This document shows positions 2,240 to 20,443 of a stretch of DNA of 64,000 bases, piece after piece (position 1 is the stretch's first letter; every line of letters starts with the position of its first letter). Under the pieces are notes generated by a model. It ran no database searches, was not told where the DNA came from, and saw only the letters and a list, made by a program, of their open reading frames with translations. Source of the DNA: Escherichia phage phiEco32; sequence record NC_010324.1. One strand, 5' to 3'. The position numbers and the translations under genes are program-made.

Positions 2240-3781
2240 ATGTCATTAGATAAACAAATTTATGAAGCTCTAACTGGTAACAATCTTAGTGTAGATGAAA
2301 AGAAAGCACTATTGAATATGTTGAAAGAGCGTGACCAATGGAGGAAGTATAATAGGATTTTGTCTTTCAAGGCGTATGACTTCCAAAAGAAATTTTATGC
2401 AGCAGGATTGAAGCATCGCTTTAGATTCTTGTGTGCAGCGAACCGCGTTGGTAAATCTTACAGCGAGGCATACGAGTTTGCTTGTCATGTCACAGGTCGC
2501 TATCCAACTTGGTGGACAGGATATAAATTTAAAAGACCTATCTTAGCATGGGCAGTTGGTATTACAGGGGATTCCACAAGGAAGGTATTGCAAAAGGAAT
2601 TGTTTGGTACACCTATCGGAAAGGATACAAACTTATTAGGGACAGGTGTCATTCCTCGTGACGCTATCGTCATTGACACGATAGAGCGAGATGGTAACAA
2701 ACTTCAAATCGTACAAATCAAACATCAAAATGAAAGAGGAGAGTTTGACGGTTTAAGTACATTAGAATTCCGTTCAACCCAACAGGGTGAACACACATTG
2801 ATGGGTGCAACAGTTGACTACATTTGGTTAGACGAAGAAGATCCATACGAGTCTATGGCTATATTCGCACAGTGCGTCACACGTACACTCACAACTAAAG
2901 GTCTAGTTACAATTACAGCTACGCCAGAGAACGGTTTAACTGAACTGGTAGATAAATTTATGAAAGGTGAAGGAGATGAGAGCACAGGTTCTCTATATTT
3001 CCAGAATGCTTCTTGGTGGGATGCTCATGTAGACCTAGGTGGACACATCACTGACCAAGATATAAAAGATATGACTGAAGGTATTCCAGCGTGGCAGTTA
3101 GAGATGCGTTCAAAAGGTATGCCATTGTTAGGAAGTGGTTTGATATATGATGTATCGGATGACACAATTAAATGTGAACCATTCGAAATTCCTGATACGT
3201 GGAAACGTGTCTGTGCAATTGATATTGGTATTGATCACCCAACTGCTGCTGTTTGGACAGCTTACGACGCAAACACGGATACTATCTATGTTTACGACTC
3301 ATATAAAGAAGGTGGCTTTACTCCAGTGTATCATGCTCCAGCTATTAATGGTCGTGGTCAGTGGATTCCTGTCATCCTACCGCATGATGCGGACAATACT
3401 GAGAAGGGTAGTGGTTCATCTGTTGCTCAATTCTATAAGAATGCAGGAGTTAACGTACAGAGTGAGACCTTCTACAACAAAATTGGAATGGATGGTAAAA
3501 AGAACTTCTTTGTAGAACCGGGAATCACAGATATCCGAGAAAGAATGATGAGTGGACGCTTTAAAGTCTTTAACACAGCCGCTAACGCTAAGCTATTCGA
3601 AGAGAAAGCTAGATATCACCGTAAGGTTGGTAAGATTATTAAAGAACATGATGACTTAATGGATGCAATGCGCTATTCAGCGTGCTCTGTTACACATCGT
3701 GGTCGCTCTAAGCATGATGTTAGCTACGGAAGCGCTTCTTTGTATGAGGCAAACGTAAGCAGATGGAATCAGAGCTACTAA
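2240..3781 (+). CDS. terL: terminase large subunit
   Basis: Walker A-like CAANRVGKS, Walker B-like IWLDEED, C-terminal nuclease-like acidic motifs (DIGIDHPTAAVW); SD GGAGGAAG. Confidence 0.9.
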   Translation: MSLDKQIYEALTGNNLSVDEKKALLNMLKERDQWRKYNRILSFKAYDFQKKFYAAGLKHRFRFLCAANRVGKSYSEAYEFACHVTGRYPTWWTGYKFKRPILAWAVGITGDSTRKVLQKELFGTPIGKDTNLLGTGVIPRDAIVIDTIERDGNKLQIVQIKHQNERGEFDGLSTLEFRSTQQGEHTLMGATVDYIWLDEEDPYESMAIFAQCVTRTLTTKGLVTITATPENGLTELVDKFMKGEGDESTGSLYFQNASWWDAHVDLGGHITDQDIKDMTEGIPAWQLEMRSKGMPLLGSGLIYDVSDDTIKCEPFEIPDTWKRVCAIDIGIDHPTAAVWTAYDANTDTIYVYDSYKEGGFTPVYHAPAINGRGQWIPVILPHDADNTEKGSGSSVAQFYKNAGVNVQSETFYNKIGMDGKKNFFVEPGITDIRERMMSGRFKVFNTAANAKLFEEKARYHRKVGKIIKEHDDLMDAMRYSACSVTHRGRSKHDVSYGSASLYEANVSRWNQSY

Positions 3782-3786
3782 AGTAA

Positions 3787-3816
3787 GGGGGAGGTTTGTC
3801 CTCCCTTCTTTTATTT
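3787..3816 (+). terminator. hairpin gggagg-tttgt-cctccc followed by ttcttttattt
   Basis: GC stem plus U-run between terminase and portal genes. Confidence 0.45.
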
Positions 3817-3842
3817 AAGCTATCAACCGAGGGAGAGAATAG

Positions 3843-6086
3843 ATGGCTAAGCAAAAATATAGTGAAGAGGTGTTGGACGAGTTACGTGTTGACCTTCAAC
3901 GTCGTTTTAATTACGCTCAAGGTTACGTTGACATGGCTGTTAAGGGCTATGCTCGTGAAGCTTGGGAATATTTCTATGGTAACTTACCTGCACCAGTAAC
4001 TGCTGGCAGCTCTAGTTGGGTAGATCGTACTGTTTGGGAATCTGTTAACGGTACATTGCAAGATATTATTAACGTATTCTGTTCTGGTGATGAAGCAGTT
4101 ACTTTCGTAGCTGACAACCAACAGGACTCTGATGCTGCTGATGTAGCAACTAAACTAGTTAACCAAATTCTTCTGCGTGACAATCCGGGATACAATATTA
4201 TCTCTTCTGCTGCACAAGAATGTCTGGTTACTCGTAACTCTTTTATCAAATACTATTGGGATGAGCACACTTCTACTCAAACTGAAGAAGCTGAAGGTGT
4301 ACCACCGGAAGCATTGGCTGCATATGTTCAGGGATTAGAGGCTGGTGGACTCAAGAATCTGGAAATCTTCACTGAAGAAAACGAAGATGGTACAGTAGAT
4401 GTTAAAGTTACTTATGAACAAACTGTTAAACGTGTGAAAGTTGAATATGTTCCTTCAGAGCAAATCTTTGTTGACGAACATGCTACCTCTTTTGCAGATG
4501 CACAATACTTCTGTCATCGTGTACGTCGTTCTAAAGAAGATCTGGTTGCTATGGGCTTCCCTAAAGATGAGATTGAAGCATTCAACGACTGGACAGATAC
4601 GATGGATACTACTCAATCTACAGTTGCTTGGTCTCGTACTGACTGGCGTCAGGATATTGATGCTGATATTGGTACAGATACCGAAGACATTGCTTCTATG
4701 GTTTGGGTTTATGAGCACTATATTCGTACTGGTGTTCTAGATAAGAATAAAGAGTCTAAACTCTATCAGGTTATTCAAGCTGGTGAGCATATCCTTCACA
4801 CTGAAGAAGTAACTCACATTCCGTTTGTAACCTTCTGCCCGTATCCGATTCCGGGTTCCTTCTATGGTCAATCGGTCTATGACATTACGAAAGATATTCA
4901 AGATTTACGTACCGCGCTAGTTCGTGGTTATATTGATAACGTCAACAATGCTAACTATGGTCGATACAAAGCACTCGTTGGTGCATACGATCGTCGATCT
5001 CTGCTTGATAACCGTCCCGGTGGAGTGGTTGAAATGGAACGTCAGGACGCTATTGACCTGTTCCCATACCATAACCTACCTCAAGGTATTGACGGCCTCC
5101 TAGGCATGTCTGAGGAGCTTAAAGAGACACGTACAGGTGTAACTAAACTTGGCATGGGTATCAACCCTGATGTGTTTAAGAACGATAACGCTTATGCAAC
5201 CGTAGGCTTGATGATGAATGCTGCACAGAACCGTCTCCGTATGGTATGTCGTAACATTGCTCATAATGGTATGGTTGAATTGATGCGTGGTATTTACAGC
5301 CTTATCAGAGAGAATGGTGAAGTTCCTATTGAGGTACAAACCCCTCGTGGTATGGTTCAGGTAAATCCGAAACAATTGCCAGCTCGTCATAATCTTCAAG
5401 TTGTTGTAGCTATCTCTCCTAATGAGAAAGCAGAACGTGCACAGAAACTGATTAGCTTGAAACAGCTGATTGCAGCAGATGCACAGTTAGCACCTCTCTT
5501 CGGTTTGGAGCAAGACCGCTACATGACTGCACAGATCTTTGAGTTGATGGGTATTAAGGACACTCATAAATACCTTCTGCCTCTGGAACAGTATCAGCCT
5601 CCTGAGCCGTCTCCAATGGAAATCCTCCAGCTCGAGATGACTAAAGCACAGGTTGAGAACGTACAGGCTTCTTCTCAGAAGATGATTGCTGATGCATTCG
5701 ACCAACGTGAACGTACTACATTCGAACAGCAGAAAGCTGCGGATGAGCTAAGTCTGCGTCAGGAAGAGTTGCAGTTCAAGCAAGAAAATGCAGCAGATGC
5801 TATGACTCTGGAAAACCGTAAAGAGGATAACAATGCAACTCTGGAACAAGCTAAGCACAAGCTAGCTCTTATGCAACAGCAGGTCCGTCAGTATGAGTCT
5901 GTACTGAAAGAATTGCAGATGGTTATGGAGCATCAGGTAGACCAAGAGAAGATTGTTCAGCAATCTCGTGTTCAGGATAAAACTTTGGAACTCCAAAAGA
6001 AAGAAGCTAATGTAACTAAGAAAGAGCAACAAACTTCTCTCAAAGATTCACGGATTCCAGGCAAACGTCTTGGAAGTAAAAAGTAA
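3843..6086 (+). CDS. portal protein with long C-terminal coiled-coil / charged tail
   Basis: 747 aa directly after terL; SD GGGAGAG; C-terminal ~180 aa Q/E/K-rich heptad-like sequence. Confidence 0.75.
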   Translation: MAKQKYSEEVLDELRVDLQRRFNYAQGYVDMAVKGYAREAWEYFYGNLPAPVTAGSSSWVDRTVWESVNGTLQDIINVFCSGDEAVTFVADNQQDSDAADVATKLVNQILLRDNPGYNIISSAAQECLVTRNSFIKYYWDEHTSTQTEEAEGVPPEALAAYVQGLEAGGLKNLEIFTEENEDGTVDVKVTYEQTVKRVKVEYVPSEQIFVDEHATSFADAQYFCHRVRRSKEDLVAMGFPKDEIEAFNDWTDTMDTTQSTVAWSRTDWRQDIDADIGTDTEDIASMVWVYEHYIRTGVLDKNKESKLYQVIQAGEHILHTEEVTHIPFVTFCPYPIPGSFYGQSVYDITKDIQDLRTALVRGYIDNVNNANYGRYKALVGAYDRRSLLDNRPGGVVEMERQDAIDLFPYHNLPQGIDGLLGMSEELKETRTGVTKLGMGINPDVFKNDNAYATVGLMMNAAQNRLRMVCRNIAHNGMVELMRGIYSLIRENGEVPIEVQTPRGMVQVNPKQLPARHNLQVVVAISPNEKAERAQKLISLKQLIAADAQLAPLFGLEQDRYMTAQIFELMGIKDTHKYLLPLEQYQPPEPSPMEILQLEMTKAQVENVQASSQKMIADAFDQRERTTFEQQKAADELSLRQEELQFKQENAADAMTLENRKEDNNATLEQAKHKLALMQQQVRQYESVLKELQMVMEHQVDQEKIVQQSRVQDKTLELQKKEANVTKKEQQTSLKDSRIPGKRLGSKK

Positions 6087-7458: not shown

Positions 7459-8517
7459 ATGGCTAATCCAACTTTATTTGTATCGTATGACCAGAATGGT
7501 AAAAAACTTTCTTTTGCTAACTGGATTTCTGTTCTGTCCCCTCAGGATACCCCGTTCGTATCTATGACCGGTAAAGAGTCTATCAACCAGACTATCTTTA
7601 GCTGGCAGACCGATGCACTGGCAAGCGTTGACGGTAATAACGCACACGTCGAAGGCTCTCGTGCTGAAGACGGCGAAATGAAACCGACTGTTATCAAATC
7701 TAACGTTACTCAGATTCTGCGTAAGGTTGTTCGTGTTTCTGATACTGCTAACACCACCGCTAACTACGGTCGTGGTCGTGAACTGATGTATCAGCTGGAG
7801 AAGAAAGGTAAAGAGATCAAGCGTGACCTCGAGAAAATCCTTCTGTCCGGTCAGGCTCGTACCGACGTTCTGGCTGACCAGTATCTGACTAACTCGGCAA
7901 CTGATCCTGCTGTTGTTGGTCTGAATGACACCCATGCAGCTCGTAAGACTGGTGCATTCCAGTTCCTGTGTGCTCACGGTGGTCTGGCTGGTGGCGTTGT
8001 TGACAAGACCAAGAATGGTCCTGCTGACCCGGATACTGGTGCAGTAACTGTTAAAGTTGCACAGAATGCTTCTAACCCGACCACTAACATTGGTTTCGAC
8101 GAAGCTGATATCTTTGATATGACTCTGCAACTGTACACCGCTGGCTCTGAAGCAGATATCATCATGATTAACCCGGCTCATGCTAAGATCTTCGCTGGTC
8201 TGCAAGAAAATACTCAGGGTTCACGTAAGCGTATCTTTGAGAACACCAAGCAGTTCATCTACGAAGTTAACAGCATCACTGACCCGCTGGGCCAGAGCTA
8301 CAAAATCATCGTTAACCGTTGGATGCCTACCGATGCAGTTTACTTCTTCCGTAGCGCTGACTGGACTCAGATGGTTCTGCGTGCTCCGAAACGTACTGAA
8401 CTGGCTAAAGATGGTTCTTACGAGAAGTGGATGATTGAAATGGAAGTTGGTCTGCGTCACCGCAACCCGTATGCTTCCGGCGTTCTGTTCACTGCTGCGG
8501 GAAAGGTGGCGGCGTAA
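7459..8517 (+). CDS. major capsid protein
   Basis: 352 aa, position after scaffold, SD AGGAGC, codon usage typical of the window. Confidence 0.8.
   Translation: MANPTLFVSYDQNGKKLSFANWISVLSPQDTPFVSMTGKESINQTIFSWQTDALASVDGNNAHVEGSRAEDGEMKPTVIKSNVTQILRKVVRVSDTANTTANYGRGRELMYQLEKKGKEIKRDLEKILLSGQARTDVLADQYLTNSATDPAVVGLNDTHAARKTGAFQFLCAHGGLAGGVVDKTKNGPADPDTGAVTVKVAQNASNPTTNIGFDEADIFDMTLQLYTAGSEADIIMINPAHAKIFAGLQENTQGSRKRIFENTKQFIYEVNSITDPLGQSYKIIVNRWMPTDAVYFFRSADWTQMVLRAPKRTELAKDGSYEKWMIEMEVGLRHRNPYASGVLFTAAGKVAA
8499..8505 (+). other. candidate -1 programmed ribosomal frameshift heptamer G_GGA_AAG
   Basis: X_XXY_YYZ heptamer in the capsid frame 10 nt before the capsid stop; the -1 frame is open from 8409 through 9041; hairpin aacagt...actgtt about 10 nt downstream. 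Confidence 0.5.
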
Positions 8518-8528
8518 CAGTAGACAGT

Positions 8529-9041
8529 GTGACTGTTAGCCCTGCGTCTTTAGCAAGTCTAGAGACAGGGGCTACTCGGCAGTTCACTGCAAGCGCGGAG
8601 AAAAGTGATGGTTCTACCGAAACAACTGGCTTTACTTGGTCAGTGACAGGAGGTGGTTCTATCACTCAGTCTGGTTTGTATACTGCTCCGAGTGCGTCTC
8701 AATCCACTGATGTATCCATTACTGCAACTTTAGAAGGTGTTTCTGGTACAGCAATCATTTCTGAAATTGTTGCTCCTGCTCCTACTATTGTAGCTAAGGG
8801 TCCAATTACGGGTAAAACTGGTGGTTCTTCCACTAACTTCACTACCATGTTTACTGTAACTAATTCTACTGCTGCGGATTACACGTTTGTTGTAACCCCT
8901 ACAGAAGCTGGTACAGTAAGCGCCGCTGGTGCGTTAACCTTAGATGCTGCTGCAAGTGGCGAAGTTACTGTTCAAGCTAGTTTGACAGCCACTCCGTCTA
9001 TCAGTGCAACATGCACTTTTACTGGTGTAACACCTGCTTAA
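8529..9041 (+). CDS. Ig-like (Big_2-type) domain ORF, probably expressed as a C-terminal extension of the capsid protein via -1 frameshift
   Basis: No ATG and no SD; the track start is a GTG; the frame is continuous with the slippery site; sequence VTVSPASLASLETGATRQFTA... is typical of Big_2 domains. Confidence 0.5.
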   Translation: MTVSPASLASLETGATRQFTASAEKSDGSTETTGFTWSVTGGGSITQSGLYTAPSASQSTDVSITATLEGVSGTAIISEIVAPAPTIVAKGPITGKTGGSSTNFTTMFTVTNSTAADYTFVVTPTEAGTVSAAGALTLDAAASGEVTVQASLTATPSISATCTFTGVTPA

Positions 9042-9047
9042 AATTAG

Positions 9048-9076
9048 ACCCTGCCTTCGGGCGGGGTTTTTTCGTT
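9048..9076 (+). terminator. hairpin ccctgcc-ttcg-ggcgggg followed by tttttcgtttt
   Basis: GC stem, UUCG tetraloop, U-run; after the Ig-like ORF. Confidence 0.6.
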
Positions 9077-9100
9077 TTAAGACCTATACAAGCCAGTGTG

Positions 9101-9109
9101 TAATGTATA
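9101..9109 (+). promoter_or_regulatory. TAATGTATA motif (candidate phage-sigma-dependent promoter element)
   Basis: Exact 9-mer 33 nt upstream of the ATG at 9143, directly after a terminator; the same 9-mer recurs upstream of other genes. Confidence 0.45.
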
Positions 9110-9142
9110 TTCTTTGTCTACATATAACAAGGAGGACAACCT

Positions 9143-9895
9143 ATGGCAATGCCAGATGTTCAATACCCCATCAATACCTATGGGTGGCTAAAGAAGGCCG
9201 TGGCCCTCTGGGCAGATAGGGACGATGACGAATTTGTTAATCAAATTCCAAACTTTATTAACTTTGCAGAGAAAGAGATTTATCGTAACTTACGTATTCC
9301 TCCTCTGGAAAAAGAAGTGTATTTAGATATCAAAGATGGAGTGGCTTATATTCCTCCTGATTACTTAGAAGCTCAGTGGATGATGAGAGCCAAAGATGGT
9401 ACAATCTTCCAAGTAACCTCTCCTGAGGAGATTAGCTATCGTAGACAGCACGGAACAATTAACCCATCTCACTGGAACAACCAACCTGTTAACTTTGCTC
9501 GTTTCGGGAGTCGTTTCATTTTCTATCCTAGTATTGAAGCAGATACTCCATACTATCCTGATGATGGAAGCCCTTTGATTCCAGCAGAAAACTCAGTGAT
9601 TCTTAGCTATTATGCAGACCCACCGGAATTCCACGAAGATACAGATACGAGTGCTATTCTTACTATCGCACCAGAGCTTCTTCTGTATTTCACCCTACGT
9701 CATGCTTGTCTGTTTGTTCAAGATGATAATGGAGTTCAGAAATGGTCAGCATTAGGAAAAGCTATCCTTGATGAAATAGTAGAGCAGAATAAGAAACAAG
9801 AGTACTCAGGTTCACCTATCGCAATTCCGAATAACATGACTCGACTTCAGAGCAGCTTGCCTGATATTTATGGTATTCGTACTTCTCGTGTATAA
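9143..9895 (+). CDS. virion structural protein (possibly head-tail adaptor)
   Basis: ORF track; SD AAGGAGG; position between capsid module and tail fibers. Confidence 0.5.
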   Translation: MAMPDVQYPINTYGWLKKAVALWADRDDDEFVNQIPNFINFAEKEIYRNLRIPPLEKEVYLDIKDGVAYIPPDYLEAQWMMRAKDGTIFQVTSPEEISYRRQHGTINPSHWNNQPVNFARFGSRFIFYPSIEADTPYYPDDGSPLIPAENSVILSYYADPPEFHEDTDTSAILTIAPELLLYFTLRHACLFVQDDNGVQKWSALGKAILDEIVEQNKKQEYSGSPIAIPNNMTRLQSSLPDIYGIRTSRV

Positions 9896-9904
9896 GGAGA
9901 TAAT

Positions 9905-12547
9905 ATGATCGTTTATAATAACCAAGCACCCGATGCAGTGAATAATGTTGGGCAGTTTGGTGCTACTGAAGGCTCTATTGGAGCTTATAAGCAAGCCGCA
10001 GAATATGCAGCTGACTCTAAATATTGGGCACTGCTAGCAGAATCTAAGTTTGGTACAATTGACGACTTGATTGCTGAAGTAGAACGTCTGTATCAACAGG
10101 GTGTTCTGATGAAGCAAGATATCGAAGATCTTAAGCAGGACTTTAAAGATCAAGATGCTCGTCTGATGGGTTTGGTTGCTCAAACTAACGCAGCAGTTGC
10201 TGATGCGAATAATGCTGTAGCTCTTATTAACCAGAAACTTATTGAAGTCCAGAATCAGCTTGACGTTCTGTTAGGAATGTCCGTTGATGTAACCACACTT
10301 CCTCCGGGAACCCCAGCTACTGGCTCTTTTAATCCGAATACTGGTGTAATTTCTTTAGGTATCCCAGAGGGTGATCCCGGAAAAGACGGTTCTGTTAAAG
10401 ACTTGGATACAGCACCTACTGGTGTTCCAGAGCTAGGTGATTTAGGTTTCTATGTTGATAAAGATGACAACACTGTTCACAAAACTACTCTAGATAACAT
10501 TGCTAACTTAATCCCATCTGTTCGTTCTGTCTCTATTAACGGCGGTCCAGCTCTTGATGGAGAGGTTGCTCTAACACTTAACAAAGAGACGGTAGGTTTA
10601 GGAAATGTTCTGAACGTCGCTCAGTACAGTCGTCAAGAGATTAATGACAAATTTGACAAGACTACCAAGACATACCAATCAAAAGCAGAAGCTGATGCTG
10701 ATGCTCAGTATCGTCAAGTAGGTGAGAAAGTTTTAGTTTGGGAAGCTACTAAGTATGAATTCTATACTGTTGCTGCTAACAAAACACTGACTCCTGTTAA
10801 AACTGAAGGTAGAATTCTTACCGTTAACTCTCGCTCTCCAGACTCAAGCGGTAATATCGATATCACGATTCCAACAGGTAACCCGTCTTTGTATCTTGGT
10901 GAAATGGTAATGTTCCCTTACGACCCATCTAAGAATATCTCCTACCCAGGAGTTCTTCCTGCTGATGGTCGTCTAGTATCAAAAGAATCTGCTTCAGATT
11001 TAGGCCCATCCCTTGTCAGCGGACAGCTCCCTGTTGTTTCAGAAACTGAATGGCAAGCGGGGGCTAAACAGTACTTCTCTTGGGGTAAGTTAGCAGACGG
11101 TATTACCGATGCGGATTCTACTAATTTTATCAACATTCGACTCCCTGATTGGACTGGAGGGGAGGCAATAAGAGCACCAGATTCTGATAAAGACTCTCAG
11201 TACAATGGGTCTGTACAGGCTCAGAAACCTTATGTTGTTACTGTAAATAACCAAGCTCCTGATGAGATTACTGGTAATGTGAACATCTCCAGATCTATCT
11301 TGGGAGCAGCTTCTTCTGGTGCAAACTCTGATATAACATCCCTGACAGGACTCACTACAGCTCTCTCTATCGCTCAAGGCGGTACAGGAGGGAAAACTCC
11401 ATCTGAAGCTAGGGCAAACCTGAATCTTGAAAGATTTCAACAAGACAATTCGCAGACTTTGATATATTCTCCTGATTATGCCCGTCGTGTTTATGTTGAC
11501 AACACTGGTGGTTCTTGGGGGTGCCAGAACGTAACAGATGGCGGTTTTATTGCTCTTGGTATTCCTCAAGGGGGTACGGGAGCTAAGGATGCTGCTGGTG
11601 CACGAAGCAATCTCGGTTTGGGTTCAGTGTCCACGCTAAACAATATACCCGTAGCTAATGGAGGTACTGGAGCAACTACTGCTGCTGGTGCTCGTTCCAA
11701 CTTAGGTCTCGGGAGTGTTTCTACTCTAGATAACGTCCCTATTGCTAGCGGTGGGACAGGTGCTGGGGATGCTGCTGGTGCAAGGTTTAACCTAGGGTTG
11801 GGGAGTTCAGCTACTCTAAACACTGGAACTACCAGCGGTAATGTTCTTAAGGTTGGTGATTTTGGAATTGGAAGACCTGATGGTGCTCTTGTTTTTGATA
11901 CTACTTCACAAGACCAACTTCTTGCTGGACTTGACACTTATGGGCTGTGTGTGTTTAGGAATAACCAACAAATAGCAGCACCTTGGGATATATGGAACTA
12001 CTCCTCAAACCTCTTCTTTAGGGCAGGAGACACATACAGTATGATAAGTATTCCGTTTGAGTCTGCCGGTAAGATAAAAGTTTTTGGTGGTGCAGCAGGC
12101 AGTGGGTGGAAAACCTCAAGGACGGTATATGATACCGTAAATACAACTGTTGACGTCAATGGCTTTATCAAAGCAGCGTCACCGATAGTTAAGGTATTCC
12201 ATGACGGAAGTTTTGAAACAAACGAACAATCTGATGGAGTTAGTGTTAAGAAAATCTCCACCGGGGTTTATTTAATTTCAGGGTGTCTTGGTCTTAATTC
12301 TGATGCAGGATGGGGTGGTGTAGATGGAGGTTTTGAAATCCCAATAGACCGAAACAAACAACCTAGAGTTTGGCTTGACTATGAGGTTAAAGAGGATGGT
12401 TCTCTTTTAATTAAAACTTATCATAGAACCCATTCAACATCCCCAGCTTTTGCTAGAAACGAGTTGGAAGGTTTTTCTGACGGAGACCCTGTTGACATTC
12501 CTAAGGATGCGTTCATTTCGGTTCGTGTTGAAATGCCTTCTAAGTAA
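9905..12547 (+). CDS. tail fiber protein with internal tandem repeats
   Basis: 880 aa; three 30-aa GGTGAxxAAGARSNLGLGSVSTL repeats typical of phage fiber repeats; SD AAGGAGA. Confidence 0.7.
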   Translation: MIVYNNQAPDAVNNVGQFGATEGSIGAYKQAAEYAADSKYWALLAESKFGTIDDLIAEVERLYQQGVLMKQDIEDLKQDFKDQDARLMGLVAQTNAAVADANNAVALINQKLIEVQNQLDVLLGMSVDVTTLPPGTPATGSFNPNTGVISLGIPEGDPGKDGSVKDLDTAPTGVPELGDLGFYVDKDDNTVHKTTLDNIANLIPSVRSVSINGGPALDGEVALTLNKETVGLGNVLNVAQYSRQEINDKFDKTTKTYQSKAEADADAQYRQVGEKVLVWEATKYEFYTVAANKTLTPVKTEGRILTVNSRSPDSSGNIDITIPTGNPSLYLGEMVMFPYDPSKNISYPGVLPADGRLVSKESASDLGPSLVSGQLPVVSETEWQAGAKQYFSWGKLADGITDADSTNFINIRLPDWTGGEAIRAPDSDKDSQYNGSVQAQKPYVVTVNNQAPDEITGNVNISRSILGAASSGANSDITSLTGLTTALSIAQGGTGGKTPSEARANLNLERFQQDNSQTLIYSPDYARRVYVDNTGGSWGCQNVTDGGFIALGIPQGGTGAKDAAGARSNLGLGSVSTLNNIPVANGGTGATTAAGARSNLGLGSVSTLDNVPIASGGTGAGDAAGARFNLGLGSSATLNTGTTSGNVLKVGDFGIGRPDGALVFDTTSQDQLLAGLDTYGLCVFRNNQQIAAPWDIWNYSSNLFFRAGDTYSMISIPFESAGKIKVFGGAAGSGWKTSRTVYDTVNTTVDVNGFIKAASPIVKVFHDGSFETNEQSDGVSVKKISTGVYLISGCLGLNSDAGWGGVDGGFEIPIDRNKQPRVWLDYEVKEDGSLLIKTYHRTHSTSPAFARNELEGFSDGDPVDIPKDAFISVRVEMPSK
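11569..11838 (+). repeat. intragenic 3 x 90-bp tandem repeat inside tail fiber gene
   Basis: Protein-level repeat GGTGA(K/T/G)..AAGAR(S/F)NLGLGS(V/S)STL x3; a degenerate fourth copy lies upstream. Confidence 0.6.
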
Positions 12548-12556
12548 ATTAACAAT

Positions 12557-12572
12557 GCTCCCTTCGGGGAGC
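12557..12572 (+). terminator. hairpin gctccc-ttcg-gggagc (UUCG tetraloop), weak U-run
   Basis: Perfect 6-bp stem between tail fiber genes; only TTT follows, so may act as stabiliser or attenuator. Confidence 0.35.
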
Positions 12573-12587
12573 TTTAAGGAGATTTAA

Positions 12588-14756
12588 ATGGCTAGAGAAT
12601 TAATGCCCAAATCTGGTATAATGATGCCTCATGTGGTTGTAACCAGAGATGCGGCTGTTGTTGGTGTTTCTACCGTAGATGGACAGGCAGGGGCTATTGA
12701 CCTCACTGGAAAGTATCTACAGAAAACTGACGCAGCTGCTACCTACCAGACTAAAACAGAAGGCGCATCTAAAGATTTTGTGCTGGATTCAATTCAACCT
12801 ATTATGTCTGGTGCTTTGTTCCGAGAAGATCCTTGGGTTGTGAACGACACACCTTTCCGCTCTACTGGAGCTAACGGAGTAGAGTCAGTGGATATGATGA
12901 AGGTCACTCCTGATAACTCAATTAAGATTGGCAGCTATGCTTCCTCGGTTCAAGGCGTAGAAATTCATTCTGCTGGTCGTCTTCAGGTTGTTGACCAGAA
13001 TGACAGTGGTGTAGAAACTAAGTATCCAGTTTATTCTAAACGTTATCGTCCCGAGATTGAGGATTTACCTTTCGCTGCGATTGGCTCTTATGTTAAAGAC
13101 TCCAAGGGCCGTACTATAGGTGTTAATCGTACAGGGATTAACTCTGATATCAAACAACTTACCCAGAAGGTAACTTTCACTCAACCAGTAACTGTCCCTG
13201 ATGCAGTTGGTGATTATGATGCCGTCACTTTGAGGCAACTTCGTAACAGTGGTGGTGGTTCTGGCGGTCCTACGATGAGTGGTATCTCTAACTTTGGTAT
13301 TGGTGATTTCCATTTACGTGACAGTCGAGCTTTCATCCCAGCTTTTGAAGTAGTGTCTGACGGACAGCTTTTGAACCGTGCGGATTATCCCGACCTGTGG
13401 GCATATGCTCAGTTGTTGTCACCTATAGAAGACTCTGAATGGGTGAGTAATGTTTATCAAAGAGGTAAGTATTCTAAGGGAAATGGCACAACTACTTTCC
13501 GTGTCCCTGACAGAAACGGTGTACAATCTGGTTCTATTCAAGGTCTTTTCGGGAGAGGTGATGCTGGTTCTTCTGGTAGCAATGGGGTTGTATCAGATTC
13601 TGGTGCACCAAATATCACATACTCATCTCCTCATACAATGGTAACACTCGCCTCTGCTTCGGGGCAGGTGGCAACTAATGGAGCAATCCAATCAATCACA
13701 TCTACAGACGATGTGGCTCCAGTAGGGACTGGAGGTAAATATATATCCACAAACTTTGACGCATCGCGTTCCAGCGCTGTTTACGGTCGTTCTCTTTCTG
13801 AGGTAGTTCCTCGCAACTTTATTGGTGTTTGGACTATCCGTGCTCATGGAGGGTTTACTGCTGCTAACACTTCTTGGTCTGTTATTAATAGTGATGCTTC
13901 AGAACAACCTACAGGTACACCAATTACTGGTGGGTTGGTTTCCTCTAAATATGTAGTTGGAGGTGTTGATAAATACCGGTCCTCTATCCAGTTGCTAGGG
14001 TCTAATGAAGTTGATCTATCAACTAGAATTACCACCATAAATGATAGATATGCTATTGGGGCTGCAACTTGGGATTTTAAATTAGACGGTAAACTTCTTT
14101 TCAACAAGAGCCTGACTCCTAAGGGGACAGGGGAATCTCCGGGAAATACTTATTTAACACTAGCTAACACTTGGATGAGTGCTGCATACAGTGGATACAT
14201 AGGGTTTGTTGGTGGTGGGGTTGGGGTTTCTAATGGTGGTTGGAGAAACTTTATTTCTTTAGGCTCTCTAATCTTCCCAGACTCCAGTCACCCAACTGCT
14301 GTTATTTCTCAGGTTTATGACTATGACCTTTCTACAGGAAGCCAACCTAATGGAGACATTGTCAGAAATACCTATTTCAGTGCTGAGAGCTACGATATTA
14401 CCTTCGGGAACAACAGTGGGACTACTAATTACATCTTCAGTAAATCTCCAGTCTCTGACGAACGACTCAAACATAGCATTAAGGAAGAAGGGACAGCCAC
14501 AGCTCTTTCTAACCTAAATAAGATGGAGTATAAAACCTTTATCTATAATTATGATGAGAAAGCAACTGTAAGGCGTGGGTTTATTGCCCAACAACTTGAA
14601 GCTATTGACCCTCAATATGTTAGGAAGTATAAAACCTTCAAAGGTACTGATACCCTAGCTTTAGATGAGAATGTGTTGCTTTTAGATGCAATTGCTGCTA
14701 TTCAAGAGCTTACCAAAAAGGTTGAGGTTTTAGAAGCAAAATTGGCAGAGAAGTAA
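12588..14756 (+). CDS. tail fiber / tailspike with C-terminal intramolecular-chaperone (peptidase S74-like) domain
   Basis: C-terminal ~100 aa SDERLKHSI...RRGFIAQQLEAIDPQYV...LLLDAIAAIQELTKKVEVLEAKL matches the auto-cleaving chaperone domain of endosialidase-type fibers; SD AAGGAG. Confidence 0.7.
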   Translation: MARELMPKSGIMMPHVVVTRDAAVVGVSTVDGQAGAIDLTGKYLQKTDAAATYQTKTEGASKDFVLDSIQPIMSGALFREDPWVVNDTPFRSTGANGVESVDMMKVTPDNSIKIGSYASSVQGVEIHSAGRLQVVDQNDSGVETKYPVYSKRYRPEIEDLPFAAIGSYVKDSKGRTIGVNRTGINSDIKQLTQKVTFTQPVTVPDAVGDYDAVTLRQLRNSGGGSGGPTMSGISNFGIGDFHLRDSRAFIPAFEVVSDGQLLNRADYPDLWAYAQLLSPIEDSEWVSNVYQRGKYSKGNGTTTFRVPDRNGVQSGSIQGLFGRGDAGSSGSNGVVSDSGAPNITYSSPHTMVTLASASGQVATNGAIQSITSTDDVAPVGTGGKYISTNFDASRSSAVYGRSLSEVVPRNFIGVWTIRAHGGFTAANTSWSVINSDASEQPTGTPITGGLVSSKYVVGGVDKYRSSIQLLGSNEVDLSTRITTINDRYAIGAATWDFKLDGKLLFNKSLTPKGTGESPGNTYLTLANTWMSAAYSGYIGFVGGGVGVSNGGWRNFISLGSLIFPDSSHPTAVISQVYDYDLSTGSQPNGDIVRNTYFSAESYDITFGNNSGTTNYIFSKSPVSDERLKHSIKEEGTATALSNLNKMEYKTFIYNYDEKATVRRGFIAQQLEAIDPQYVRKYKTFKGTDTLALDENVLLLDAIAAIQELTKKVEVLEAKLAEK

Positions 14757-14760
14757 TATA

Positions 14761-14776
14761 AGCCCCTTCGGGGGCT
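14761..14776 (+). terminator. hairpin agcccc-ttcg-ggggct (UUCG tetraloop)
   Basis: Perfect 6-bp stem right after the stop; weak T-run. Confidence 0.35.
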
Positions 14777-14848
14777 TTAGTAGTAAGTACCCTTAGTAAG
14801 TAATGAAACTAATATATCCCAAGAGGTTAATATATAGGAGACACTCAA

Positions 14849-15067
14849 ATGAAAATGATGAAACAAGCTGCATACGGTTTAATATGTTTAGGTGCAGGCG
14901 TTGTGGTATCAACCGCAGTCCCTGTAGGCGCAGTTCATCCATTAGTAACTGTCCCTGCTCCAGTAGAGAAGCTCAGCTCTCAATGCAAGCAGAGAACAAT
15001 TCAAAATAACCTAGTTGTTATTTGTCCTGATGCTGAATCTAACGCTCTGAGAAAGATACTACCTTAA
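14849..15067 (+). CDS. small membrane protein, candidate holin
   Basis: 72 aa; N-terminal hydrophobic segment AAYGLICLGAGVVVSTAVPVGAV; immediately upstream of the endolysin; SD AGGAGA. Confidence 0.35.
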   Translation: MKMMKQAAYGLICLGAGVVVSTAVPVGAVHPLVTVPAPVEKLSSQCKQRTIQNNLVVICPDAESNALRKILP

Positions 15068-15096
15068 TTTAAAGGGACTACAAAAGGAGGTTAGAA

Positions 15097-15588
15097 ATGG
15101 ATAACGTCGCATTGCCACCTGTACAACTAAACTTAAGCCCAGCTGGAATGGAATTCATCATGAAGCATGAGGGTATGAGAACAAAGGCTTATAAAGATTC
15201 CGCAGGTATCTGGACTATATGTGTAGGGGCTACGCGCGATATGAATGGTTATCCGGTTAGACAAGGATTAACGTATTCTATAGAGGATTGTCTAGCTCTG
15301 CTAGATAGAGACACACAAGACTCTGTTCGTGCTACTCAGAAGAACATAAAGGTTCCTTTACTAGTTCATGAGTTTGATGCACTCACTTCTTTCAACTTCA
15401 ATGTTGGCAGTGGGGCTTTGAGCACATCTAAGTTAAGGAAGGTTATCAATGGAGAAGTGAAAGGTGATGTATATTCCGAATTTCTTCGTTGGGATAAAAT
15501 AACGGTCAAGGGAGAGAAGCAGAGAAGTCAGGGTCTTCATAATAGAAGGGTTGCAGAAGCTGATCTTTACACCGAAGGTAAATATTAA
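15097..15588 (+). CDS. endolysin, T4-lysozyme-like (GH24) muramidase
   Basis: Catalytic pattern E-8aa-D-5aa-T in MKHEGMRTKAYKDSAGIWTICVGAT; no signal sequence; SD AAGGAGG. Confidence 0.85.
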   Translation: MDNVALPPVQLNLSPAGMEFIMKHEGMRTKAYKDSAGIWTICVGATRDMNGYPVRQGLTYSIEDCLALLDRDTQDSVRATQKNIKVPLLVHEFDALTSFNFNVGSGALSTSKLRKVINGEVKGDVYSEFLRWDKITVKGEKQRSQGLHNRRVAEADLYTEGKY

Positions 15589-15600
15589 TGGAGGTGCCTT

Positions 15601-16404
15601 TTGGCTATCGAAACTAATGCGGTAGTTATTACCGACTTAAACCCACTCTATCCTAGAGACAGGGATTACATCTACGAAGGGGCGGCTCAAATCCGCCTCA
15701 TTAAGCAAACGTTACAGAACACATTCCCCAATGTTACAGAACCGGTTGATATAGATTCTGACACCTTTAAGATTATGTCAGAGAAGCTCAAGTTTACTGG
15801 TGATGCAATGGATGTTGGTGGTCTTATGATCAAGAACGTTACTCCGGGAACTGGTGACAAGGATGTTGTTACTAAAGGTCAGATGGAAGCGTTCATGAAG
15901 AACTGGATGGAGAATAAGCTCTATCGAATTGGTTCTTACTACATCACTGAAGAAGACATTAACCCCGGTGATTCAATCTCCTTAGGGTTTGGTTCTTGGG
16001 CTAAAGTGACTGGTGTCATTATGGGTACTGGTGTAGTAAACCCTGATGGCTCTGTTCCTAATGCTCAGAGAGTTGAGTTCCAAGCAGGTGGTACTGGTGG
16101 TCGTGTCTTCAATACTATTCGAACTGAGAACGTACCTTTGATGACTGTTAATGGCTCCAGCTTCTCTCTATCTAGTAATACTCACAGTCACAATATGGTA
16201 TTTGGTCGTGGAGATGCTAGTGGTCATAACAGCTCACCAAACTGGTATAGTCCGGGTGGTGGTTACAGCCAGAGAACTGATAATGACACACATACTCATA
16301 CAATCTCTGGTAGTGTAAGTCTTGGTCGTGATGATATCTCTCGTCAACCTATTAACACTTTGCCACCATTCAGAGCAGCTCACATTTGGAGACGTATTAG
16401 CTAA
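15601..16404 (+). CDS. tail fiber protein with tail-collar-like C-terminal domain
   Basis: TTG start with SD GGAGGTG 4 nt upstream; His/Gly/Ser-rich C-terminus resembling phage tail collar domain. Confidence 0.5.
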   Translation: MAIETNAVVITDLNPLYPRDRDYIYEGAAQIRLIKQTLQNTFPNVTEPVDIDSDTFKIMSEKLKFTGDAMDVGGLMIKNVTPGTGDKDVVTKGQMEAFMKNWMENKLYRIGSYYITEEDINPGDSISLGFGSWAKVTGVIMGTGVVNPDGSVPNAQRVEFQAGGTGGRVFNTIRTENVPLMTVNGSSFSLSSNTHSHNMVFGRGDASGHNSSPNWYSPGGGYSQRTDNDTHTHTISGSVSLGRDDISRQPINTLPPFRAAHIWRRIS

Positions 16405-16413
16405 GGAGGAATT

Positions 16414-19400
16414 ATGGCGCTGTATCCAATAAAGTCATTAGGTGCTGTAGGCGTTATCGCTGATCAGGCTCCGACAGACTTAGCTCCTAATGCTTTCACT
16501 AATGCTATAAATGCTCGATTTGTGGAGCAGAGAGTATTTAAGACGGGGGGCAATGCCCCTCTTTCTTATGTAGATGAAGATAAGGATTTAACCCCTCTGT
16601 CTTTCATTTCTATGCCTTTCGATTATTATAGCGCAGGTAATAGCTTTCTTGTTGTAGGTACGGATAAGAAGTTATATAAACTGACAGATGAAAGCTTGAC
16701 TGATATTAGCCGTAAGGTTGCTACAGTCACTAAAAAGGCTTCTGCCTCAATTAAGATTTATCCGGTTGTTTCTCAGATTGTTCCTAAAGAATCAACCATC
16801 TCAATGAACTTCAATCAGACCAAGAATCTAGAGGTTTCTCTTCTTCCTGCTGATGCCAACAATACCGATCTTGTTTGGGAGGTTAGTAACTCATCTTATG
16901 GAAGTATTACAGTAGACCCTAGTGACTCTAAACTTGCTACTCTAACATCTTTTGAGAAAGAGGGTAATCTTGTAGTAACTATCTCTACTGCCAATGAATC
17001 CGTAGTGGCTCAGATTGCTGTTAATATCATAGATGGTGATTCAGGCATCTTCTTGAGTCAAGATACTGTTACAATTCGTAAGGGAGGGACTACTACTCTC
17101 ACGGCTGTTACTGGCAAGACTCCTGTAACTTGGTCCAGCAGTAACGCTTCTATTGTATCCGTAACCCCTAACGCCAACTCTTTAACTGCTGTCATTACAG
17201 CGAATGGAGAAGGTAATGTAACAATCACTGCTGATAACGGGACTAAGACTGCTTCTTGTGAGATTGTTTCTATCCCTCAGATTGATAGTATCTCTTTAAG
17301 CCAGTCAGATGTTACTGTGAGTAGAGGTTCTCAGTACATCTTAACTGCTACCCTTTCTCCTGCTAACGCCCCTAATCAAAATATTACTTGGACCTCTTCT
17401 AATCCAAATATTGCAACAGTATCAGGGACTAGCACACAAGGGACGATCAACGCTCTACTTGCTGGTTTTACTGAGATTACAGCTACCACTGAAGAAGGCA
17501 ACAGGATTGCTGTCTGTACTGTACGTGTAGATTTAGCTGGGAGGACAATGAGAACAAGTGCTATGGCATTTGCCGCTCCTGTGTCAGAGTCAGTAGAAAC
17601 TCAAGAGGAAGAAGTAGTAACTCCTCCTGAAAGTGAAGAGACGGTTTATTTTGCTGAGCCTACATCTGGTATTGATACATCAGGGATGTACGAAGGTAAT
17701 AACTTCTACGATTACTCTAACGTGAATGACATTGAAGGTTTTGCAAGAGCTTCTTTACTGGCAACCCCTCTGTCATCTGTAACCTTAGATATTGTCAGCG
17801 CTTCTCTTGATGTTGGTGAAGAGATTGTCATTACAGCCACAGCTTCTCCAGAAGGTGAGTACTCTTATCAGTGGTCTGTTGATAAAACTGGTTATGTTTC
17901 TACAACCTCAGTTACTGGTAAATCTATCAAACTGGTTGCTCTTCGTAAAGGAGAGATTAACGTAACATGTACTGTCAGTCAGATGACTCAGAAGGATTAC
18001 GATGCTTTTGATGACTACCCTTGGTATCACGCTGTTATCTCTAACTGTGCAGTTGCTACAACTCACTATGAAACTCCTCAGGTAAAAGAATTCGAATCAG
18101 AATACTTTGTAGACCTTCCGGGGTGGGGTGAGCAAACAGTTGTTGATAATGATGGAAACCCTTCAGTCAAGAAGTTTAACTGGAAATGTGAGAGAGTAAG
18201 ATCTTTTAACAACCGTCTTTTTGCTCTGAATATGAGAGAGGCTAACGCTTCTGGTGTTACCACTAACTACCCTCTTCGTCTTCGTTGGTCTAACTTTGCC
18301 AACGAGAACAAGGCTCCTACACTGTGGGATGACTTTGCCTATGATCGAGTTGTGTCTTCGGACTTAGCTTCTAACATCGTAGGGCAGACTCAGGCTCTAG
18401 AGAATGGGTATGCTGGTTACATCGACTTAGCAGATTCTAATGGTAGCTTGATTGATATCCTACCTCTTAAAGATTACTTGTTCGTTTATACAGAGTTTGA
18501 AACGTATATTGGTTCTCCGACTAATAACACGTACCAACCTCTAATGTTCAAGAAGCTCTTTAACGACTCTGGTATCCTTGCTCCCGAGTGTGTGGTTGAA
18601 GTAGAAGGTAGTCATTTCGTAGTTACTCAGAACGATGTAATCTTACACAACGGTGCAACCAAGAAGTCAATTGCATCTAACCGTGTTAAGAATATGTTGA
18701 TTAATGAGGTGTGTCTGGTTAATCCTCTAGCAACTCGAGTACACTTGCATCAGGATAAGAAAGAAGTTTGGGTTCTCTATGTAGGACCGGGGGAGCCAAA
18801 AGAAAGCTTCGCTTGTACTAAAGCTGCTGTATGGAACTACGAGTTTGATACTTGGTCTTTCCGTACTATCCCATATGCTCAGTGTATTGGTCTGGTTGAT
18901 CCTCCTGTTTTAGAAAGAGGTCCAATCTGGTCTGACTTCCAAGAAATCACTTGGGATGACCCATCTATTAAAGAACTCGTTTGGAGAAAGGATGCAACAA
19001 ACTTTAGACAGAGGGTTACGATAGTAGGTTCATTCTTGAAGGGATTCTATCAAGTGGATGTAGGTGCTCTTGATTATTTCTATGACAGGCTAAATGATGT
19101 TGTTATAGAGAAGCCTCTGGAAATGAGGTTGGAGAGGACTGGTATAGATTTTGATAATGTGACTAATGAGTGGAATCAGAAGCATATTAACAGGTTCCGG
19201 CCTCAGACAACCGGTTCAGGTACTTACATATTTGAAGCTGGTGGTAGTCAATTCTCAAATGAATACGGACACCCACACACATCTAAGACATATACGATCG
19301 GTGTTGACAGGCACGTCTCGGTGAGACTGAACCATCCATACCTTTTCTATAATGTTATAGATAATGATGTTAACAGTAATGCTGCTATCAATGGTTTAAC

Positions 19401-19431
19401 GATAGAGTTTGCTGTTGGCGGGCGGAGATAA
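16414..19431 (+). CDS. large tail protein with multiple Big_2 Ig-like domains
   Basis: 1005 aa; repeated WSSSN..V..VT..G..TA...G.VTITA..G motifs typical of Big_2 domains; SD AAGGAGG. Confidence 0.65.
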   Translation: MALYPIKSLGAVGVIADQAPTDLAPNAFTNAINARFVEQRVFKTGGNAPLSYVDEDKDLTPLSFISMPFDYYSAGNSFLVVGTDKKLYKLTDESLTDISRKVATVTKKASASIKIYPVVSQIVPKESTISMNFNQTKNLEVSLLPADANNTDLVWEVSNSSYGSITVDPSDSKLATLTSFEKEGNLVVTISTANESVVAQIAVNIIDGDSGIFLSQDTVTIRKGGTTTLTAVTGKTPVTWSSSNASIVSVTPNANSLTAVITANGEGNVTITADNGTKTASCEIVSIPQIDSISLSQSDVTVSRGSQYILTATLSPANAPNQNITWTSSNPNIATVSGTSTQGTINALLAGFTEITATTEEGNRIAVCTVRVDLAGRTMRTSAMAFAAPVSESVETQEEEVVTPPESEETVYFAEPTSGIDTSGMYEGNNFYDYSNVNDIEGFARASLLATPLSSVTLDIVSASLDVGEEIVITATASPEGEYSYQWSVDKTGYVSTTSVTGKSIKLVALRKGEINVTCTVSQMTQKDYDAFDDYPWYHAVISNCAVATTHYETPQVKEFESEYFVDLPGWGEQTVVDNDGNPSVKKFNWKCERVRSFNNRLFALNMREANASGVTTNYPLRLRWSNFANENKAPTLWDDFAYDRVVSSDLASNIVGQTQALENGYAGYIDLADSNGSLIDILPLKDYLFVYTEFETYIGSPTNNTYQPLMFKKLFNDSGILAPECVVEVEGSHFVVTQNDVILHNGATKKSIASNRVKNMLINEVCLVNPLATRVHLHQDKKEVWVLYVGPGEPKESFACTKAAVWNYEFDTWSFRTIPYAQCIGLVDPPVLERGPIWSDFQEITWDDPSIKELVWRKDATNFRQRVTIVGSFLKGFYQVDVGALDYFYDRLNDVVIEKPLEMRLERTGIDFDNVTNEWNQKHINRFRPQTTGSGTYIFEAGGSQFSNEYGHPHTSKTYTIGVDRHVSVRLNHPYLFYNVIDNDVNSNAAINGLTIEFAVGGRR

Positions 19432-19435
19432 CAAC

Positions 19436-19462
19436 AAGGGGCTTCGTGCCCCTTTTATTGTT
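19436..19462 (+). terminator. hairpin ggggc-ttcgt-gcccc followed by ttttattgtttt
   Basis: GC stem plus U-run right after the stop at 19431. Confidence 0.55.
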
Positions 19463-19474
19463 TTGGAGGAACTT

Positions 19475-20443
19475 ATGGGTGCAGGTGGTTTTCGTAAGAA
19501 CACTGGTCGCAACAACACCACACTCCCGTACAACGTTGGGTTTCTCAATAATGTACAGGACACAGAAACATATAACGTAGCCGTGTATGATGAATTACAA
19601 AAAGTTAGCACAGCTACTAACCAAATGTTCCAAGCTATAGATGAAATTCACGAAGAGATTGATGTTCGTATTAAAGCTCTTAATGCAATGAATCTACAAT
19701 TTGATGAGCTTGAGAATAGAATTACTACAGAGATAGAAACAGCTATTGCAGATATCCAAACCCAGATGGGGAACCTGTCCACTGAGGACATTTGGGATAA
19801 CTCTGTTCAACCTCCTGTGAAGCTGGAAAGCACTGTATCTGGTTTTAAGACTAGCATCGAAGGTAACACAACTAAGATTCAGACAGTAGAAGGTATTGTT
19901 AACGATCAAGGTCAAGAGATTGCTCTTGTTCAGACAGAACTGCAAAATATCAACGGAAGCCTTTCTCAGTATATGAAACTCTCTGAGTATGAAGCTACGT
20001 GGGGTGTTAACTCTACAGTCAACGGAAGATATGCTGGGGTCAAGTTAACTAACAACGGAACAAACAGTCAATTTCAAGTAACAGCTAACAAATTTATTGT
20101 TGGTGATGGCAGCTCTGGGAATACTCCATTCGTATTTGAGGGTGGGCGAGCTAGGATGGAATTCGCTGATATAAAGAACGTCAATATCACAACAGCTCAG
20201 ATTGCTAACGCTAGAATCCAATGGGCACAGATTGATAACGTATCTATCTCCAATGCTCAGATTCAGAACTTATCAGCGGATAAGATTACTGCTGGTTCTA
20301 TGTGGGGTTCTAACTGGAGACTTACTGTTGGTGGTGATTTTGTTATGGGAGGCACAGGTGGGGCACAATTGTGGATGAATGGTAACAGAATAGACTTCTA
20401 CGATGGAAGTGGTGCTCTAAGAATCAGGATAGGGAGTTGGTAA
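19475..20443 (+). CDS. tail fiber / structural protein (coiled-coil N-terminus)
   Basis: Track ORF starts at 19409 but that start lies inside the terminator; ATG at 19475 has SD GGAGGAA. Confidence 0.5.
   Translation: MGAGGFRKNTGRNNTTLPYNVGFLNNVQDTETYNVAVYDELQKVSTATNQMFQAIDEIHEEIDVRIKALNAMNLQFDELENRITTEIETAIADIQTQMGNLSTEDIWDNSVQPPVKLESTVSGFKTSIEGNTTKIQTVEGIVNDQGQEIALVQTELQNINGSLSQYMKLSEYEATWGVNSTVNGRYAGVKLTNNGTNSQFQVTANKFIVGDGSSGNTPFVFEGGRARMEFADIKNVNITTAQIANARIQWAQIDNVSISNAQIQNLSADKITAGSMWGSNWRLTVGGDFVMGGTGGAQLWMNGNRIDFYDGSGALRIRIGSW

Follow-up and report, generated by a model that had tools for sequence, protein, structure and literature searches.

C-terminal intramolecular chaperones of the peptidase S74 family have been described on several phage tailspikes and long tail fibres. 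Here, we analysed the gene of one such fibre, gp15 of Escherichia phage phiEco32, within a 64,000-nucleotide (nt) stretch of sequence record NC_010324.1, referred to below as the window. The founding member of the family in MEROPS and Pfam is the chaperone of the K1F endosialidase (3GW6), a longer domain that sits on a tailspike enzyme with a stalk formed by a triple beta-helix, whereas that of gp15 is placed on a non-enzymatic fibre tip. For T5 pb1 (4UW7/4UW8), Ser1264 and Lys1269 (at +5) were proposed as the catalytic pair, and the S1264A exchange blocks processing (PMC4690869). The cleaved T5 tip inhibits infection by competition, but the uncleavable S1264A form, which keeps its chaperone, does not (PMC4690869). 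A dyad equivalent to that of T5 (S578/K583) is found in the eukaryotic homolog MYRF, whose ICA domain (7DC3) releases a transcription factor from the endoplasmic reticulum membrane and is unrelated to virions.

Within the Gordonclarkvirinae, gp13 of phage EP335 (Nieuwekanaalvirus) has the same gene position and four-module layout as gp15. When fused to green fluorescent protein, EP335 gp13 lost 11.8 kDa as determined by liquid chromatography-electrospray ionisation-mass spectrometry (MS), which was assigned to a cut between Ser621 and Asp622 (PMC8217332). These two residues are the S-D of 'TSDERIKSNI', which aligns column by column with 'VSDERLKHSI' of gp15 (S621 versus S623 in the common SDER(L/I)K motif), and residues 622-729 of EP335 gp13 compute to 11,838 Da. 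Identity between the two proteins amounts to 64% before the chaperone. The EP335 chaperone shares 38% identity with that of gp15 and exceeds it by 8 residues. Phage EP335 binds O157 and O26 O-antigens, and the distal tip of its gp13 is unrelated in sequence to the gp15 tip (13-37% identity per alignment window). A further two-protein branched fibre, comparable to phiEco32 gp14/gp15, is formed by LtfA and LtfB of the siphovirus DT57C (PMC4728585, PMC10713586). Both DT57C proteins carry pfam13884 with predictable cleavage sites, the first 45 amino acids (aa) of LtfB resemble phiEco32 gp15, and gp14 together with gp15 was described as forming a branched fibre (Golomidova 2016, PMC4728585). Apart from these ~45 residues, the attachment module of DT57C is unlike that of gp15, and LtfA has 'SGIEYK' in place of the gp15 'SDERLK'. 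Finally, the BASEL 2025 study described the distal fibres of Gordonclarkvirinae as 'T-shaped', with a Gp12-like RBD1, a T5-like RBD2, and a C-terminal intramolecular chaperone, and reported horizontal exchange of distal-fibre parts between podo-, sipho-, and myoviruses.

An S74 chaperone on the phiEco32 fibre is already known and ordinary; the feature has been documented for this fibre family. An earlier reading of the DNA sequence alone (the original prediction) had presented it as noteworthy, but a standard Pfam scan detects the domain, and cleavage of an ortholog has been verified by experiment. The coordinates given there were exact: the Ser of SDERLK is residue 623, its codon begins at nt 14454, and nt 14756 is the last position of the stop codon. 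Likewise, all peptide strings quoted were found in the translation of the 722-aa open reading frame (ORF). The product of this ORF is identical to phiEco32 gp15 as deposited (ABY52816.1 / YP_001671760.1 / UniProt B0FIH7, 'tail fiber protein'), is matched over its full length by PHROG 6921 (tail fiber), and forms a 90%-identity cluster of its own in a set of ~15 billion proteins. Its role as distal fibre follows the nomenclature of the SU10 cryo-EM structure (PMC9509320), and gp15 is the Gordonclarkvirinae distal long tail fibre, i.e. the 'T-shaped' fibre of the BASEL study.

The proposal that the last ~100 aa of gp15 constitute an S74 chaperone was borne out by profile search. Pfam PF13884 (Peptidase_S74) matches aa 623-678 over profile positions 1-57 of 58 with 41.5 bits (E = 1.7e-10), compared with a curated gathering cutoff of 22 bits. 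With aa 561-722 as query, an exhaustive HMMER scan over 1.84 billion representative proteins yielded 865 homologs at E <= 1e-3, 94 of them at E <= 1e-10. In the best 150 of the 865, the column of S623 is occupied by Ser in 141 sequences (94%), by Cys in eight (5%), and by Ala in one (1%), and the columns of D624 and K628 are invariant (100% each), while conservation drops immediately upstream of S623. The distance from the motif to the C-terminus has a median of 108 residues and is at most 140 in 94% of these sequences; in gp15, it is 100. The catalytic dyad is present as S623 and K628 (+5), the same spacing as S1264/K1269 in T5 and S578/K583 in MYRF. The exceptions at the nucleophile position are CDxxxK in P0012, P0044, P0051, P0058, P0059, P0096, P0104, and P0114 and ADARIK in P0057; judging from these residues, the former may be thiol-nucleophile and the latter non-cleaving S74 variants.

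Some searches had a limited reach. Single-sequence phmmer against the Protein Data Bank (PDB) found only DT57C LtfA, 8jov and, weakly, S16 gp37, but neither T5 nor K1F, and the only result of a word-indexed search for homologs of aa 585-722 was one 93-aa fragment. A rival reading is that the S74 match reflects a chance or compositional resemblance of a generic C-terminal coiled coil. The last ~28 residues of gp15 are a plain amphipathic helix, and the single-sequence phmmer comparison also gave a weak match to the designed helical protein 4hhu (E = 0.13). However, the region matched by Pfam (aa 623-678) is the non-helical N-terminal portion of the domain rather than the helix, the invariant D624, K628, G664, and Q668 are all located outside the terminal helix, and fold matches extend over 115-143 residues of real chaperones (see below). 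We give this explanation next to no credence and regard it as effectively refuted.

More sensitive comparisons used a 40-sequence profile, A1. Against the PDB, A1 matched 8jov (E = 6e-15), the ICA domain of human MYRF 7DC3 (E = 5e-13), and gp37 of phage S16 6F45 (E = 1e-10), as well as the neck appendage of GA-1 (3GUD, E = 7e-5), the crystal construct of which starts with 'SDERHK' aligned to the gp15 motif. DT57C LtfA (8HQZ), the only PDB sequence match for full gp15 (aa 203-527, plus the chaperone), was aligned by the profile over the whole tip and chaperone (E = 3e-36). The similarity of T5 pb1 to gp15 is too low for either phmmer or A1 to reach 4UW8.

Structure prediction did make this connection. 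An AlphaFold2 model of aa 430-722 computed on A1 had a mean predicted local distance difference test (pLDDT) value of 83.9, with 89-97 for the chaperone part except for one block at 82. In a Foldseek comparison with the PDB, the only matches with E < 0.03 were the intramolecular chaperones 7DC3, T5 pb1 4UW8, and K1F 3GW6 (probability 0.97-1.00), and whatever ranked beneath them was noise. The modelled fold is the one expected for S74, combining a mixed alpha/beta unit with a beta-hairpin and, at the C-terminus, a long coiled-coil helix (aa 694-721 according to the models), and appears superposable on 3GW6, 3GUD, 4UW8, and 7DC3. With two 5-residue hairpin strands and 100 aa, compared with 50 Å beta-hairpin 'tentacles' and 133 aa in T5 pb1 (PMC4690869), the domain is among the shorter members of the family. 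The AlphaFold2 monomer model of full-length gp15 was of low quality (pLDDT 58 on average, below 50 for aa 1-240) and was left out of the fold searches. Taken by sequence and fold, residues 623-722 of gp15 are a peptidase S74 intramolecular chaperone.

Given this domain and the proven cleavage of an orthologous fibre, gp15 very probably cleaves itself, which would yield a mature fibre of ~66.06 kDa (aa 1-623) and a released fragment of ~11.35 kDa, compared with 77.4 kDa for the uncleaved chain. By analogy to T5 pb1 and K1F, three nascent gp15 chains would associate via their C-terminal helices and thereby template the interdigitated, beta-rich tip upstream, the folding of which would then depend on the chaperone. 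Once the correct trimer geometry is reached, Ser623 would be activated by Lys628 and the chain cut at the position of Ser623. The ~11.35 kDa chaperone would subsequently dissociate and expose the receptor-binding tip. As for the bond itself, cleavage occurs after the Ser according to the EP335 MS data (PMC8217332) but before it as inferred crystallographically for T5 (PMC4690869), and phi29 was modelled the other way from T5. In gp15, the predicted scissile bond is either Ser623-Asp624 (as in EP335) or Val622-Ser623 (as in T5), outcomes that would differ by 87 Da. Computed as average masses including Met1, the first would give 66,058 Da for aa 1-623 and 11,352 Da for the fragment, the second 65,971 and 11,439 Da, respectively, compared with 77,392 Da for the intact chain.

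Several points speak against self-cleavage of gp15 or fail to lend it support. We found no direct cleavage measurement on phiEco32 gp15 in the literature covered, which did not include the original 2008 phiEco32 proteomics paper. Virion proteomics of SU10 gives the full predicted mass for gp13; as the molecular weight column restates the theoretical mass and the data come without peptide lists, this says nothing on processing. The gp15 model is a monomer and shows no inter-subunit active-site geometry. Both T5 and K1F use an upstream folding-sensor Arg with a partner Asp. In T5, the sensor Arg1250, at -14 and contributed by a neighbouring subunit, forms the oxyanion hole with its partner Asp1239, so that cleavage signals a correctly folded trimer. 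Neither residue has a clear positional equivalent in gp15, where the T5-equivalent -14 position is occupied by Asn instead of Arg, and other sensor candidates are only partly conserved (R593 in 12 of 22, D578 in 25 of 28, D603 in 13 of 30, and K619 in 17 of 40 sequences).

These points bear on an alternative, namely that gp15 carries a true S74 homolog which is retained uncleaved as a permanent C-terminal trimerisation cap. Cleavage of gp15 is deduced from relatives, with a sensor Arg that is not identifiable by sequence; the single Ala among 150 homologs means that non-cleaving variants may exist; and a relative in the BASEL study, Bas93, has a large truncation in the chaperone. Still, we consider a retained cap unlikely, as gp15 has preserved the Ser, Asp, and Lys of the motif, and EP335 gp13 with the same SDERxK motif does cleave. 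Moreover, retention would probably disable the gp15 tip, because the retained T5 chaperone abolishes receptor competition. The same T5 result (PMC4690869) backs the notion, put forward together with the original prediction, that removal of the chaperone matters for receptor-binding studies.

Compared with phage ECBP2, the chaperone (14454-14753) is identical in all 100 residues despite 14 nt differences, all of which are synonymous. The neighbouring tip differs from that of ECBP2 at the protein level, and the intergenic region just downstream of gp15 is 77% identical. On this comparison, the chaperone appears to be under purifying selection. Alternatively, the tip could be folded by a separate assembly chaperone of the Tfa or gp38 type, leaving the C-terminal domain as a dispensable remnant. 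Many long tail fibres do use separate chaperones, e.g. gp57A/gp38 in T4 and Tfa in lambda and Mu. However, no candidate gene adjoins the phiEco32 fibre, which is followed by a hairpin, a 72-aa ORF, and lysozyme, and a decaying remnant is argued against by the 0 nonsynonymous versus 14 synonymous changes relative to ECBP2. We regard this explanation as very improbable.

If gp15 is processed like its relatives, recombinant protein should be produced with aa 623-722 attached for folding, and a product of ~66 kDa is to be expected. C-terminal tags would be lost on cleavage, and in an S623A variant the receptor-binding tip would probably stay masked, as in T5. In fibre-swap engineering, the tip should move together with its chaperone. 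These practical consequences are not new in principle but follow from what has been published on EP335, T5, K1F, and the BASEL phages.

The modules of gp15 and its partner gene are compiled in Table 1. The N-terminal anchor module, which presumably docks onto the proximal fibre gp14, lies within the first ~270 aa that are ~100% identical to SU10 gp13, with DNA identity reaching 100% over 12588-13037. For the middle module, phmmer aligned gp15 aa 203-527 with DT57C LtfA (PDB 8hqz_d, E = 2e-80), and Pfam gave a weak, sub-threshold Collar match at aa 294-311; the equivalent region of EP335 gp13 resembles the tip of T4 gp12 according to HHpred (PMC8217332). Within the full-length model, this module also holds the one stretch predicted with confidence (aa 250-350, pLDDT 76-92). 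The distal tip is modelled mostly as beta-sheet with one disordered loop (block-mean pLDDT 41-94), and its fold comparison gave no resolved similarity to the T5 pb1 tip itself.

Table 1. Modules of gp15 and the adjoining proximal fibre gene of phiEco32, with positions in the window
Feature	Residues	Position (nt)	Strand	Evidence
gp15, distal long tail fibre (SU10 gp13 / EP335 gp13 position)		12588..14756	+	ORF, exact match, PHROG 6921, synteny
N-terminal anchor module (approximate bounds)	1 to ~200	12588..13187	+	~100% identical to SU10 gp13
Middle module, 'Gp12-like RBD1'	~201-430	13188..13877	+	phmmer to DT57C LtfA 8hqz_d, BASEL naming
Distal tip module, 'T5-like RBD2', ECBP2-like	~431-622	13878..14453	+	DNA identity switch near nt 13905
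Intramolecular chaperone / peptidase S74 domain, long C-terminal helix at end	623-722 (100 aa)	14454..14753	+	
Predicted motif for auto-cleavage, S623-D624-E-R-L-K628 (Ser as nucleophile, Lys at +5 as general base)	623-628	14454..14471	+	Column conservation, alignment to EP335 gp13 and 3GUD
gp14, proximal long tail fibre carrying gp15 (SU10 gp12 counterpart)		9905..12547	+	Exact match ABY52815.1

From approximately nt 13905 onward, the DNA is 78-99% identical to ECBP2, compared with 29-54% to SU10. By these identities, gp15 is a natural chimera, in which an SU10-type anchor and RBD1 are joined to an ECBP2-type tip and chaperone. The mapping of 149 homologs onto the four segments (anchor, RBD1, tip, and chaperone) likewise indicates that the modules are independent. 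The chaperone only is shared with gp15 by 97 homologs, tip and chaperone by 18, RBD1, tip, and chaperone by 16, and RBD1 and chaperone by 12; all four modules, and hence the anchor, are common to only five. At 62-73% protein identity, the block of tip and chaperone was also found in three viral contigs of 45-50 kb (L006, L007, and L008; match at 3001-3846 in each). This size is typical of small siphoviruses and fits horizontal transfer across morphotypes.

Whether tip and chaperone travel as an obligate client-chaperone cassette is less certain, and we put this forward only tentatively, considering it somewhat more doubtful than not. If true, host-range swaps, whether natural or engineered, would succeed only with a junction upstream of the tip (~aa 430-440), not at the boundary between tip and chaperone. 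DNA identity to ECBP2 rises from ~86-88% at 13905-14300 to 95-100% from ~nt 14343 onward. An abrupt recombination break coinciding with the predicted cleavage site was also considered. As the differences within the chaperone are all synonymous, purifying selection explains the identity pattern as well as a second crossover would, and no breakpoint is claimed there.

DNA searches assigned the window region to the prolate podophages of the Gordonclarkvirinae / Kuravirus group, with nt 9000-20000 being ~95.5% identical to SU10 and PGN6866. phiEco32 was not among the matches listed from the 'phages' BLAST collection, and for this reason the best DNA matches cover at most 89% of the gp15 gene. DNA-based best matches understate how well known the gp15 sequence is. 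No NCBIfam model matched gp15, gp14, or the 72-aa ORF.

The gene for gp15 is placed directly 3' of the proximal fibre gene and 5' of the lysis and short fibre/nozzle genes. This order (9905-12547, 12588-14756, 72-aa ORF, lysozyme, short tail fibre, nozzle) is kept in ECBP2, SU10, and EP335. The short fibre and the nozzle protein are exact matches to ABY52819.1 and ABY52820.1, respectively, and the accessions follow genome order. In SU10, the 72-aa ORF is listed as a putative holin. For the short tail fibre (15601-16404, 267 aa), the ORF list gives a TTG start codon, which is probably real because the identical 267-aa protein occurs on 53 contigs.

In gp14, the Pfam scan detected Phage_tail_C_2 at aa 746-879 (E = 1.7e-60) but no S74 match. 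With 880 aa, gp14 is 83% identical to SU10 gp12 (786 aa), the main difference being a 94-aa insertion. These extra residues (aa ~497-600, nt 11393-11704) account for an increase in 'GGTGA..AAGARSNLGLGS' shaft repeats from ~2 in SU10 to 4 and, judged from their sequence, would lengthen the proximal shaft relative to SU10. A DNA-level tandem repeat scan found none in the insertion and no meaningful ones in the fibre genes.

Both fibre genes are followed, 3-10 nt past their stop codons, by GC-rich hairpins with a TTCG loop at 12557-12572 and 14760-14777 (GCTCCCTTCGGGGAGC and AAGCCCCTTCGGGGGCTT). Only TTT follows on the + strand in either case, with no long T-run, and these elements may be weak terminators or mRNA-stabilising hairpins. 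Across the window, a promoter scan gave 10 sites, i.e. fewer than by chance (mean of 14.4 in shuffled sequence), a terminator scan gave 9, which is not clearly above chance (mean 5.2, sd 2.6), and no tRNA genes were detected. The heptamer GGGAAAG occurs 7 times in the whole window, which is not above chance (7.7 expected), and only its position in the major capsid gene (7459..8517) is meaningful. There, it is located at 8499-8505, 12 nt before the stop codon and followed by an ORF at 8529..9041; at this capsid position, GGGAAAG has been reported for SU10 and YF01 as a -1 slippery site giving rise to an extended capsid isoform.

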